From Cyclobacteriaceae bacterium (GTDB taxonomy: Bacteria > Bacteroidota > Bacteroidia > Cytophagales > Cyclobacteriaceae), in NCBI GenBank assembly GCA_965228595.1, contig OZ245828.1:5255846-5279845 (forward strand): a DNA stretch of 24,000 nt, in the 5' to 3' direction. Made by a program: the position numbers and the translations under genes. Under the pieces are notes generated by a model that was not told the origin of the DNA, did no database searches, and saw nothing but the letters and a program-made list of their open reading frames with translations. Positions 8,697 to 24,000 of the stretch are shown here, one piece after another; positions within the stretch are counted from its first letter, which is position 1, and each line of letters opens with the position of its first letter.

Positions 8697-8856
8697 TGGG
8701 AGTGAAGGTTGGTATATCCGCGAAATTAAAAGGATGTGGTTGAAATTAAATCGGAATCAGGCTTTAAATAATAAGCTTGTTTGTTTGTGTTATCACCATA
8801 ACCATCAATCTAAGGATTGATTATCCAATTGAGCTTGACTGGATTGATTAAAATCA

Positions 8857-8873
8857 GGCCGCTCCTACGGAGC
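8857..8873 (+). repeat. Outer REP-like hairpin, forward (GGCC GCTCC-TAC-GGAGC)
   Basis: A 5-bp GC-rich stem with a 3-nt loop. It recurs at 9912-9928 and 12231-12243, and in inverted form at 9347-9363 and 10189-10205. Confidence 0.8.
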
Positions 8874-8896
8874 TAACTACAATTCGTCATTAATTT

Positions 8897-9098
8897 CTAC
8901 AAACAGGTCGTCCCTCCGGGACTCTTTTCGCTCCATGTAAGACTTCAATAATTGACATGTTCATTAAAGTTTAATGATAACATTCAGATCAGGCAGCCCT
9001 CTCAGCATGCGGCATTTTAATTTCAGCACATGAGCGTCGCACAAGCCATGAGGAAGACAAGCAAGGGAGAAAAGATTTATGGTTACAAAGGAAGCCCA
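8897..9098 (+). repeat. Unit A: inner box CTACAAACAGGTC + hairpin GTCCC-TCC-GGGAC + ~170-bp core
   Basis: It is a head-to-tail duplicate of unit B with a 202-bp period (8899 aligns with 9101). I count only 3 substitutions between A and B. Confidence 0.85.
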
Positions 9099-9321
9099 AG
9101 ACAAACAGGTCGTCCCTACGGGACTCTTTTCGCTCCATGTAAGACTTCAATAATTGACACGTTCATTAAGGTTTAATGATAACATTCAGATCAGGCAGCC
9201 CTCTCAGCATGCGGCATTTTAATTTCAGCACATGAGCGTCGCACAAGCCATGAGGAAGACAAGCAAGGGAGAAAAGATTTATGGTTACAAAGGAAGCCCC
9301 AGCGGGGCGACCTGTTTGTAG
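9099..9321 (+). repeat. Unit B: inner box + hairpin + core + inverted inner box (GCCCC-AGC-GGGGC GACCTGTTTGTAG)
   Basis: The terminal 13-nt boxes CTACAAACAGGTC and GACCTGTTTGTAG are exact inverted repeats, and each is adjacent to a 5-bp-stem hairpin. Confidence 0.85.
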
Positions 9322-9346
9322 AAATTTACATTTGTTAGTGTGATTA

Positions 9347-9363
9347 GCCCCGTAGGGGCGGCC
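9347..9363 (-). repeat. Outer REP-like hairpin, inverted variant (GCCCC-GTA-GGGGC GGCC)
   Basis: It is the reverse complement of the outer hairpin, with one stem pair changed from T-A to C-G. Confidence 0.75.
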
Positions 9364-9441
9364 CGATGCTACATGTTGAACCTTAGCAAATGGTTCTAAT
9401 TGATTCAGATAATTTGGTTAAGTTTCAAGAAATATTGAAAG

Positions 9442-9903
9442 ATGGCAAATACCTATTCAAAAATCTACATTCAAATTGTCTTTGCAGTAAAAGGGCGTCA
9501 GAATTTAATACCGAAAGCCCATCGTGAAGAGCTACATAAATATATCTCAGGAATTGTCGACCGTAGGGATCAGAAATTATTATCCGTATTTTGTATGCCA
9601 GACCATACCCACCTGTTTGTGGGTATGAAGCCATCAGTCTCTGTATCTGATTTAACCAGGGATGTTAAGGCGGCTTCCTCCGGATTCATTTCTGATAATA
9701 ATTGGGTGAAAGGTAAATTTCAGTGGCAGGAGGGATTTGGAGCTTTTTCATATTCCAGAAGTCAGGTAGATACGGTCGCTGCTTATGTTTTGAATCAGGA
9801 AGAACATCATCGTAAGCAGACCTTTAGGGAAGAATACATTGACTTCTTGAATAAATTCAATGTTCAATTTGATGAAAAATACTTGTTTGACTGGATTGAA
9901 TAA
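9442..9903 (+). CDS. REP-associated tyrosine transposase (RAYT; IS200-like HUH/Y1 family)
   Basis: 153 aa. It has an HUH motif (PDHTHLFV), a catalytic Tyr motif (AAYVLNQEEHH) and the N-terminal IYIQIVFAVKGRQ strand typical of Y1 transposases. There is no tnpB partner, and the gene is flanked by REP-like hairpins. Confidence 0.88.
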   Translation: MANTYSKIYIQIVFAVKGRQNLIPKAHREELHKYISGIVDRRDQKLLSVFCMPDHTHLFVGMKPSVSVSDLTRDVKAASSGFISDNNWVKGKFQWQEGFGAFSYSRSQVDTVAAYVLNQEEHHRKQTFREEYIDFLNKFNVQFDEKYLFDWIE

Positions 9904-9911
9904 TAAAATCA

Positions 9912-9928
9912 GGCCGCTCCTACGGAGC
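9912..9928 (+). repeat. Outer REP-like hairpin, forward copy immediately 3' of the RAYT gene
   Basis: Identical to 8857-8873. Confidence 0.8.
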
Positions 9929-9950
9929 TAACTGCGATTCATCAATGATT

Positions 9951-10164
9951 CTACAAACAGGTCGTCCCTCCGGGACTCGTTTGGCTCCATGTAAGACTTC
10001 AATGATTGATATGTTCATGAAGGTTTAAATAAACAACATTCAGGTCTGATAGCCCTCACATCATACGGCATTTCATGAGCGTCAAACAGGCCATGAGGAA
10101 GACAAGCAAGGGAGAAAAGATTTATGGTTACAAAGGAAGCCCCAGCGGGGCGACCTGTTTGTAG
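9951..10164 (+). repeat. Unit C: inner box + hairpin + diverged core + inverted inner box
   Basis: Same architecture as unit B. The right-hand ~75 nt are identical to B. The left and middle parts carry many substitutions and a net deletion of about 9 nt. Confidence 0.85.
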
Positions 10165-10188
10165 ATAATATCAGTTAAAGGAAGAACA

Positions 10189-10205
10189 GCTCCGTAGGAG
10201 CGGCC
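10189..10205 (-). repeat. Outer REP-like hairpin, inverted (GCTCC-GTA-GGAGC GGCC)
   Basis: Exact reverse complement of 8857-8873. Confidence 0.8.
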
Positions 10206-20490: not shown

Positions 20491-20554
20491 AGATTCCTGC
20501 CTCCCGTCAGGCAGGCTTCACTTCGTTCAGGATGACGTTAGAAAATCACGTCCT
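20491..20554. repeat. Hairpin-repeat family member just 3' of the 115-aa gene (possible terminator for the minus strand)
   Basis: It contains CCTGCCT-CCCGTC-AGGCAGG (7-bp stem, 20496-20515). This is followed by CTTCACTTCGTTCAGGATGACG-TTAGAAAATCA-CGTCCT, in which 19 of 23 nt match the GIY-YIG repeat arm. Confidence 0.5.
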
Positions 20555-20900
20555 AAACCGCCTCCAACACTTTGGCTTCCTGCCTGGTTTTCTGCAAATG
20601 ATGCTTCAGGGTGGGGAAGTCCTCCAGAAATTCCCGGATCTGTTTGGCATGGGTAAAGTCCCTGGAACCGTGACCATACTGGTCGGTCCACTCGATGGTC
20701 ACTTTGGCTTCTCTGATATTTAAATTCTTATTTGTCATCCTGAAAACGTCTACGGGTGAATACTTTTTACTGAAATAGTACCTGCTGATGGTATTGTAGT
20801 CCGGAACGGGTACCCCAACATTGTTACAAAGGTCTTCCACACACCTTTTAAAGAAAGTAAGGGAAGAATTGGCTCCTGTATATATTTCGTACTCGTTCAT
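20553..20900 (-). CDS. Hypothetical 115-aa protein (orphan, no recognised family)
   Basis: A clean ATG-initiated ORF, divergent from the 21044 lipoprotein gene across an AT-rich 143-bp spacer. I see no signal peptide and no recognisable motifs. Confidence 0.6.
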   Translation of the reverse strand: MNEYEIYTGANSSLTFFKRCVEDLCNNVGVPVPDYNTISRYYFSKKYSPVDVFRMTNKNLNIREAKVTIEWTDQYGHGSRDFTHAKQIREFLEDFPTLKHHLQKTRQEAKVLEAV

Positions 20901-20924
20901 AATACTAATATAATTAGTATTATG
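20898..20924. promoter_or_regulatory. 12-bp-arm palindrome overlapping the start codon of the 115-aa gene
   Basis: CATAATACTAAT-ATA-ATTAGTATTATG is read directly from the sequence. The CAT at 20898-20900 is the complement of the ATG start codon. Confidence 0.45.
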
Positions 20925-23276: not shown

Positions 23277-23382
23277 AATCTATTCTTTTAGTGTTTGGTA
23301 TGATGACGGGTGAGAGGCATTGAAATGGACAGGTTGATCATACTATTTTAGACTCAGGGTGATTTTTCATTTCTGTTTTTTT

Positions 23383-23499
23383 GCTAAGATTCTTCGCGTT
23401 GCTCAGGATGACGTAAATAAAAAATCAACCGTCATGCTGAGCCTGCTAAGCATCTTAGTGATCAGAACTCTTCATGAACAATAGAAAAAGAAGGATCTT
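23383..23499 (+). repeat. Left direct repeat flanking the GIY-YIG gene (long imperfect palindrome)
   Basis: The arms at 23383-23412 and 23429-23457 are largely complementary around a 16-nt A/T-rich loop. The tail ends in AAGGATCTTA, which is complementary to the first nucleotides of the repeat. Confidence 0.8.
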
Positions 23500-23543
23500 A
23501 ATAAGAAGTTCATTCCTACCATTATTTATCATTAAATTGGTGT

Positions 23544-23843
23544 ATGGTACGAGGTGGCCTTGTATATATCACAACCACAAAAAGAAACACAGTACTTTAC
23601 ACGGGTGTGTCCTCAGACCTACCAGGAAGAGTCTATGACCATAAAACAAAGGCCTACCCAAAATCCTTTACTGCAAGATATAACGTAGATAAACTGGTGT
23701 ACTATGAAGAACACCCCACCATAGAAGAAGCAATTGCCAGGGAGAAAGAAATCAAAGGTTGGACACGTGCCAAAAAGATCAAACTCATTGAGTCCATGAA
23801 TCCTGAATGGCGAGATCTTTATGAGGAAGTAAAGGAGTGGTAG
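23544..23843 (+). CDS. GIY-YIG nuclease superfamily protein (small stand-alone URI-domain type)
   Basis: 99 aa. It has VYITTTKRNTVLYTGVSSDL (a GIY-YIG-like Y..x..YTG), then RVYDHK and REKEIKGW, typical of the ~100-aa COG2827-like group. Confidence 0.85.
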   Translation: MVRGGLVYITTTKRNTVLYTGVSSDLPGRVYDHKTKAYPKSFTARYNVDKLVYYEEHPTIEEAIAREKEIKGWTRAKKIKLIESMNPEWRDLYEEVKEW

Positions 23844-23856
23844 GGCCTTTTTAATT

Positions 23857-23974
23857 CTAAGATCCTTCGCGTTGCTCAGGATGACGTAAATAAAAAATTA
23901 ACCGTCATGCTGAGCCTGCGAAGCATCTTAGTGATCAGAACTTCCTCATGAACTATAAAAGAAGAAGGATCTTA
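23857..23974 (+). repeat. Right direct repeat flanking the GIY-YIG gene
   Basis: It is near-identical to 23383-23499 in the same orientation, with a handful of substitutions and a 1-nt length difference. It starts 13 nt after the stop codon. Confidence 0.8.
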
Positions 23975-24000
23975 GCAATCAGGACTATATATGTAATATT

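Follow-up and report, generated by a model that had tools for sequence, protein, structure and literature searches.

The small GIY-YIG nuclease gene near the right-hand end of the DNA analysed here (hereafter the window, a 24,000-nucleotide stretch corresponding to positions 5255846-5279845 of a genome that forms one contig of 5.98 Mb and has a G+C content of 43%) very probably belongs to an Ssn-type locus, in which, as sequence comparison suggests, the gene of a predicted single-stranded DNA (ssDNA) endonuclease is flanked by its cognate SRM repeats in the 'NTS-ssnA-NTS' layout. What was observed here comprises homology, repeat architecture and covariation, the dispersal of the repeats in intergenic regions, synteny, a site empty of the gene, and a breakpoint lying within a repeat doublet.

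The Ssn family was defined in 2025 (PMC11893778). SsnA of Neisseria meningitidis is a 94-aa single-domain GIY-YIG protein (CDD cd10448; Chenal et al. 2025, Nat Commun, PMC11893778), which binds the NTS CGTCATTCCCGCGMAVGCGGGAATCYRG as ssDNA only and cuts a few nucleotides upstream (PMC11893778). Binding to the NTS depends critically on the C that follows the palindrome, and cleavage on the three nucleotides that precede it; the loop is dispensable (PMC11893778). SRMs lie near 71% of the Ssn homologues and on both sides of 42% of them, and the 'NTS-ssnA-NTS' layout was likened by the authors to IS200/IS605 and REP/RAYT (PMC11893778). The Ssn enzymes tested so far come from four proteobacterial species, including the Neisseria and Wolbachia enzymes (PMC11893778). 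The statement of the initial annotation of this DNA, that small stand-alone GIY-YIG proteins have no established substrate, has therefore been out of date since March 2025. Literature searches on GIY-YIG with palindromic repeats, REP/RAYT, COG2827/UPF0213/YhbQ, and MITE returned nothing relevant, and a search on SsnA returned Chenal et al. 2025 only.

Layout of the Locus

The GIY-YIG gene is the sole open reading frame between two direct repeats (Table 1), which share 91% identity over 125/126 nt (blastn E 2e-44) and 96% identity in their 76-nt palindromic cores. Each core is composed of the arms CTAAGATyCTTCGCGTTGCTCAGGATGACG and CGTCATGCTGAGCCTGCkAAGCATCTTAG on the two sides of an A/T-rich 16-nt spacer. 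The initial annotation had described a GIY-YIG gene flanked by direct palindromic repeats with ~30-nt arms and a 16-nt spacer, and this description is confirmed. The repeats that it gave as ~118 bp from 23383 are real, but they are 125/126 nt long and 23383 lies 7 nt inside the first of them. Repeat 1 is separated from the ATG by 43 nt, and the stop codon from the first arm of repeat 2 by 13 nt. The full 125-nt repeat occurs in the 5.98-Mb genome at this locus only (blastn).

Table 1. Features of the locus (positions in the window).
Feature	Position	Strand	Basis and remarks
Direct repeat copy 1 (SRM doublet + 42-nt tail)	23376-23500		blastn vs copy 2; repeat search D5/D11
Left-arm SRM unit, copy 1	23384-23413	-	minus strand CGTCATCCTGAGCAACGCGAAGAATCTTAG, C.A mismatch in mini-stem; nhmmer E 1.5e-7
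A/T-rich 16-nt spacer separating the two CGTC heads, copy 1	23414-23429		sequence
Right-arm SRM unit, copy 1	23430-23458	+	CGTCATGCTGAGCCTGCTAAGCATCTTAG, G-C variant of covarying mini-stem pair; sequence, covariation table
Half-SRM tail GAAGGATCTTA, copy 1	23490-23500	+	sequence; kept in 5' leader of orthologues (upstream regions of L002, L003, L004, L006)
ssn-like gene, 99-aa single-domain GIY-YIG nuclease (predicted)	23544-23843	+	Pfam PF01541 E 2.4e-17
Direct repeat copy 2 (SRM doublet + tail)	23849-23974		blastn, repeat search
Left-arm SRM unit, copy 2	23857-23886	-	minus strand CGTCATCCTGAGCAACGCGAAGGATCTTAG; nhmmer E 3.4e-8
A/T-rich 16-nt spacer separating the heads, copy 2	23887-23902		sequence
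Right-arm SRM unit, copy 2	23903-23931	+	CGTCATGCTGAGCCTGCGAAGCATCTTAG, G-C variant; sequence, nhmmer, covariation table
Half-SRM GAAGGATCTTAG, copy 2	23964-23975	+	further copy beyond window end at 24008-24019
Truncated SRM unit of the same family, CGTCATCCTGAACGAAGTGAAG, then CCTGCC..GGCAGG hairpin	20516-20537	-	nhmmer E 5e-4

Each repeat copy can form a long hairpin on either strand, with DNA energies of -19 to -26 kcal/mol. Compared with shuffled sequences, DNA folding gave z = -4.1 to -7.0 with 0/200 shuffles as good, and RNA folding of the repeats was alike (z -3.6 to -6.7). Both copies also carry the tail AAGGATCTTA, which is complementary to the start of the left arm, perfectly over 10 nt in copy 2 and with one mismatch in copy 1. 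The alternative pairing proposed earlier for this tail is thus correct as regards the complement, but the predicted minimum-energy folds prefer the arm-arm hairpin. Tail pairing as a demonstrated switch was rejected, because it is formally possible but absent from the minimum-energy folds of both DNA and RNA. The tail probably derives from a third SRM that has decayed and of which it is the 3' half.

The Repeat Unit

The true repeat unit is each ~30-nt arm, and neither the 118-nt repeat nor the long palindrome. An arm consists of CGTC, a 21-nt hairpin, and C, where the hairpin comprises 5 bp, tandem G.A/A.G, 2 bp, and a triloop. A survey with motif searches and nhmmer detected ~24-38 copies of the ~30-nt unit CGTCAT(C/T)CTGA...GAAG(G/A)ATCTTAG in this genome, mostly solitary, and 23 of the 24 confident units are intergenic, with no long reading frame open, compared to 10% of random positions. 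A strict pattern of the unit has 3-16 matches in each of the eight additional genus genomes and 9 matches in a set of four other genomes. In 28 further relatives it found nothing, and a reversed control pattern had no match in the genomes searched.

Base-pair covariation in 79 units from 13 genomes indicates the structure of the unit. The mini-stem pair located after CGTCAT and before ATC is C-G in 53 units, T-A in 24, C.A in 2, and T-G in 0, for which Fisher's test on 42 distinct sequences gave p = 2e-9. The inner pair 12-18 shows all four Watson-Crick types (G-C 13, A-T 13, C-G 1, and T-A 1), and across the 79 units the G.A/A.G pairs between the two stems are invariant and the triloop is variable. 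The right arms in the window represent a third variant of the mini-stem pair, G-C (ATGCT/AGCAT), by which the intra-arm stem is kept and the long palindrome is broken at two positions. Because this double change keeps the intra-arm stem while breaking arm-arm pairing, the small hairpins are what selection acts on. That the long palindrome is itself under selection was rejected on the basis of the same double change and of the relatives, in which the mini-loops of the two arms differ.

The long imperfect palindrome arises because two units stand head-to-head across a spacer, which is 15-17 nt long in all doublets of the genus and variable in sequence. Strict head-to-head doublets number 0-3 per genus genome, and all of them lie in the neighbourhood of this locus except one at 3.57 Mb in G001 (the relatives compared individually are designated by G numbers, and their loci by L numbers; GCA_047947195.1 is a same-genus relative).

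A second small hairpin (CCTGCC..loop..GGCAGG) was found within the loops of SRM units or fused to truncated units, at window positions 20491-20554, at 555853-555914 of the same genome, and at ~9737-9785 of L033. At the equivalent position, G001 has a GCCTTGCTTCGCCGAAGC..GGCAAG hairpin. Hairpins inside SRM loops fit the published tolerance of the SRM loop for insertions.

The stable RNA folds and the intergenic positions could also be accommodated if the palindromes acted as RNA, namely as terminators, attenuators, or mRNA-stabilising hairpins, with the adjacency of a nuclease gene being coincidental. This explanation is extremely improbable, since no U-tract follows the hairpin on either strand, the units occur in both orientations relative to the adjacent genes, and the whole window has no Rfam match (E <= 1). 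In addition, such repeats are found next to GIY-YIG genes in several genera although their stem sequences differ, and Neisseria SsnA does not bind RNA (PMC11893778).

The Nuclease and Its Family

In the 99-aa protein, PF01541 spans residues 6-79 and no other domain is present. The protein was searched against five genomes chosen by an exact match to the NTS core. The homologue from Povalibacter uvarum is 54% identical (tblastn E 2e-29), and its gene has a canonical CGTCATTCCCGCGAACGCGGGAATCC NTS on both sides; that from Neisseria dentiae is 46% identical (E 3e-25), and the search of the N. lactamica genome gave no hit. The P. uvarum and N. dentiae homologues served as the Ssn proteins for comparison, standing in for SsnA of N. 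meningitidis. In the N. dentiae homologue, Y6, Y17, and E64 are the residues mutated in N. meningitidis SsnA, with identical numbering. An alignment of 14 sequences showed that Y8, Y19, R29, H33, and E67 of the 99-aa protein are invariant, of which Y8, Y19, and E67 are the equivalents of the SsnA catalytic residues Y6, Y17, and E64. A sequence search of the PDB gave a weak match to the UPF0213 structure 1ZG2 (E 0.014) and nothing else, and the sole NCBIfam match was the group I intron endonuclease model TIGR01453 at 14.8 bits, below its cut-off of 56. The fold is settled by the Pfam match together with the alignment.

The same genome encodes two further homologues, at 558408-558698 and 560148-560435, which are 47% identical to the 99-aa protein. 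Both are flanked on each side by another type of hairpin, e.g. CGTCATCCCTGCGGAAGCAGGGATC, and five of the seven CGTCATyCCTG-type hairpins in the genome adjoin these two paralogues. The paralogues lie on the minus strand of a region (553000-564000) in which they are interleaved with polysaccharide-synthesis genes, encoding GT2, NAD epimerase, GT4, and DegT aminotransferase according to Pfam. The interval 540-620 kb, which is 1.3% of the genome, holds seven of the 24 confident units of the window type, and this arrangement recalls the NTS clusters around surface-structure genes of Neisseria. At 604347-604538 there is also a fourth sequence resembling GIY-YIG genes, a weak match (29% identity, E 0.017) with SRM-like units 2-4 kb off (606347 and 608304); it may belong to a different GIY-YIG subfamily.

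Association of the Enzyme with SRM-Type Repeats

The initial annotation had proposed checking the co-occurrence of paralogues and repeats, which was found for both hairpin types: besides the hairpins adjoining the paralogues, 3-4 of the 38 units of the window type are within 300 nt of the 99-aa gene, compared to 0.006 expected. The association also extends beyond this genome. Homologues of the 99-aa protein are present in 24 of 40 relatives, and at nearly all of 30 inspected homologue loci from these 24 genomes the gene is bracketed by lineage-specific CGTCAT...ATGACG palindromes.

The four units flanking the 99-aa gene, on both of its sides, are oriented with the CGTC head first, then the palindrome, and then C. 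Their CGTC head and their final C correspond to the positions found critical for cleavage and binding, respectively, in the NTS (PMC11893778), and their overall length equals that of the NTS. The locus further resembles known Ssn/SRM pairs in that a single-domain GIY-YIG protein of ~94-100 aa has equal catalytic Tyr/Tyr/Glu residues, its gene carries on both sides a repeat composed of a CGTC head, a ~20-nt hairpin, and C, the repeats are intergenic and dispersed, and the protein is 46-54% identical to homologues from NTS-bearing genomes. The suggestion of the initial annotation that the repeats might be recognition and cleavage sites for the encoded enzyme is thereby strongly supported, as far as homology and the SRM/NTS architecture of the arms can indicate.

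Some differences from the described systems were also found. The stem here is AT(N)CT followed by tandem G.A, 2 bp, and a triloop, whereas the NTS stem is ATTCCCGCG, and this divergent stem is the reason why the units are missed by the published degenerate SRM pattern, HGTCWYN(0-2)YYVSBRHN(0-5)WNVSBRGN(0-2)RNCYNB. No match to this pattern was found among the arms or the paralogue-flanking hairpins; throughout the genome it has 23 sites, compared to 11-13 in simulated genomes, none of them near GIY-YIG genes. The published pattern is a search aid and not a definition of the family. Since the units escape it, they represent a divergent, uncatalogued type of SRM, and the present enzyme-repeat pair would have been scored as lacking SRMs. 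Moreover, there are tens of copies per genome here (3-16 strict matches per genus genome) versus hundreds in Neisseria, and the host belongs to the Bacteroidota, as a 16S-like stretch and the gene content also suggest; this group is absent from the main text of Chenal et al. (PMC11893778).

At least 120 stretches of public genomes (L042-L121 among them) contain an exact copy of the NTS core of Neisseria, CGTCATTCCCGCGNNNGCGGGAATC. Their hosts are from very distant groups and include Dehalococcoidia, Planctomycetota, Bacteroidota, Verrucomicrobiota, Nitrospirota, and many Proteobacteria. Where two exact NTSs lie near each other in these other phyla (roughly 30-200 nt apart), they are arranged tail-to-tail (+ then -), which is the opposite of the head-to-head doublets with a 15-17-nt spacer at this locus.

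History of the Locus across the Genus

Six of eight genus members have the gene in one and the same chromosomal setting, between a conserved gene for a 115-aa protein (window 20553-20924) and one for a 521-aa protein just past the window end, and the orthologues in G001, G003, G004, G005, and G007 are 77-92% identical. Because the orthologues share one neighbourhood, vertical inheritance rather than transposition is indicated. In G001, two gene copies 3 kb apart flank the orthologue of the 521-aa gene (L026, L005; G001:C1:4244939-4248434); one of them is apparently frameshifted near residue 80, and their doublets share the spacer GAATAAAAAAATAAG. In G005 (L003), the last codons of another GIY-YIG gene (..RDLYEEMRRW*) are located directly upstream of the upstream doublet, which looks like the remnant of a tandem second copy.

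The two doublets flanking the gene differ in their relationship among the genomes. The upstream and downstream doublet cores are 96% identical here, 65-79% in the relatives, and 85% at the second copy in G001, and the 42-nt tail is found in the relatives upstream only, within the conserved 5' leader. The downstream doublet in this genome has evidently been overwritten by the upstream doublet plus leader, and the sequences point to recent homogenisation by gene conversion or duplication.

A site without the gene, of the sort that a comparison of orthologous loci had been proposed to reveal, was found in G006. Judged by its 521-aa protein (92%), G006 is the nearest among the five genus genomes that were compared in this way. 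Between the equivalent flanks, it has one doublet and one solo unit, and the GIY-YIG, DUF4493, and DinB genes are all missing, so the difference amounts to 2.9 kb and includes two neighbouring genes. Although this clade of the gene is absent from G006, 9 units are kept in its genome. In G004 and G007, the gene is inverted. When G004 was compared with G005, the inverted and collinear alignments were found to overlap inside the single doublet, as would be expected if units of opposite orientation had recombined. Collectively, the gene-less site and the inversions look like recombination at repeats rather than transposition, as judged from these alignments.

Past the end of the window, at 24044-24681 on the minus strand, a membrane-protein gene appears split into the overlapping frames 24044-24382, 24207-24491, and 24466-24681, perhaps because of a frameshift in this genome; the corresponding stretch of G006 is 80% identical.

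The initial annotation had considered a mobile cassette. A cassette, or a free-standing homing endonuclease gene, whose ends or duplicated target would be the 118-125-nt repeats, could be suspected from the near-identical direct repeats bracketing the gene, from its presence and absence in the genus (G006 is without the gene, and the nearest homologue in G008 is elsewhere), from its inversion in G004 and G007, and from the two copies in G001. Such mobility is very unlikely, however, because neither the repeat nor a gene of this clade occurs a second time in the genome, no target-site duplication was seen at the locus, and the gene stays in a single locus across the genus, with its neighbourhood kept in six of eight members. 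The near-identity of the repeats is specific to this genome, the flanking doublets of the relatives being merely 65-85% alike, and the gap in G006 is not that of the cassette alone, as two unrelated genes are included in its 2.9 kb. Furthermore, unlike homing endonucleases of the Seg or I-TevI type, the 99-aa protein has no extra DNA-binding domain, and its score with TIGR01453 is far below the cut-off.

Comparison with Other Enzyme-Repeat Systems

Similarities to the REP/REPIN-RAYT systems deserve separate consideration. As in these systems, the gene is present once, is inherited vertically, and is surrounded by hairpin repeats of its own, which have a conserved 5' head, form inverted doublets, and are dispersed in intergenic regions. 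The nuclease could accordingly be pictured as mobilising the SRM units as non-autonomous elements of a selfish system, with the flanked gene as the (domesticated) master copy. This possibility can be supported by the layout, in which, as in RAYT/REP and IS200/IS605, the gene is placed between hairpin repeats with a conserved head and inverted doublets, by the dispersed intergenic units with their C-G and T-A subfamilies, and by the gene being single-copy and inherited vertically in one neighbourhood, like RAYTs. We consider it quite unlikely in view of the chemistry and of the distribution of the units. GIY-YIG enzymes hydrolyse DNA without a covalent intermediate, and we know of no strand-transfer activity in the GIY-YIG superfamily; the enzyme here is a GIY-YIG hydrolase and not an HUH/Y1 (IS200-like) transposase. 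There are just ~25-40 units per genome, and G006 has as many units without this gene clade. In REPINs the replicating unit is a dispersed inverted doublet, which was not encountered here, as most units are solo and the head-to-head doublets are confined to this locus. The selfish-element idea was raised by the authors of the Ssn study themselves (PMC11893778), and it is compatible with the Ssn/SRM explanation rather than opposed to it.

The window also contains, 14 kb away from the Ssn locus, a RAYT gene (8834-10205) accompanied by REP hairpins that are unrelated to the SRMs (repeat families D1-D6), so that this genome carries both enzyme-and-repeat partnerships.

The locus also resembles IS200/IS605 elements, in which a gene between subterminal hairpins is associated with their recognition as ssDNA, but it differs from them in that TnpA (Y1) and TnpB are missing, nothing points to transposition, and the locus is not multicopy, the repeat pair being unique in the genome. 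A further parallel is provided by dRS3 and the minimal mobile elements of Neisseria, where repeats likewise border a site with species-variable gene content between conserved flanks; the difference is that exchange in Neisseria occurs by natural transformation.

Proposed Mechanism

By analogy with the characterised members of the family, we infer the enzyme activity, the cut position, and a role, which could be, e.g., to limit or steer ssDNA recombination at marked loci. When DNA becomes single-stranded during replication or repair or enters the cell as ssDNA, each unit would fold into its small hairpin, as deduced from the Neisseria and Wolbachia enzymes. The enzyme would then bind the hairpin together with the 3' C and nick the strand a few nucleotides 5' of CGTC. 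If the cut position of Neisseria SsnA (PMC11893778) applies here, the predicted nick falls in the A/T-rich spacer of the doublets, on either strand. In this explanation the doublet repeats are substrates of recombination, which accounts for the gene-less site in the sister species and for the inverted gene in others.

A stronger version of this proposal is that the head-to-head doublets are hot spots of Ssn-dependent breakage and recombination, which drive inversion, deletion, and exchange of the segments bracketed by them between the 115-aa and 521-aa genes. We regard it as unlikely, yet if it were true, the locus would be a nuclease-programmed gene-shuffling locus instead of a set of passive repeats. 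As for the role of the system, it could be the modulation of ssDNA recombination at marked loci, as in Neisseria, or the maintenance of a domesticated selfish element.

Conclusions

The locus is a further example of a known enzyme-repeat partnership, that of Ssn, with a variant repeat; it does not represent a novel type of mobile element or of system. An evident pair of enzyme and repeat that is missed by the published pattern helps to explain why some Ssn homologues are seemingly without repeats. In addition, the repeat is a candidate for a new ssDNA specificity, having a stem in which G.A pairs stand in tandem and one base pair covaries in nature among three variants. The comparison across the genus shows the fate of such a locus over time, in which the repeats have been homogenised, the gene has been lost with repeats staying behind, and the gene has been inverted with a breakpoint inside a doublet. 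These observations are relevant to the debate on the nature of Ssn/SRM pairs, which may be selfish elements that became domesticated or modulators of recombination.
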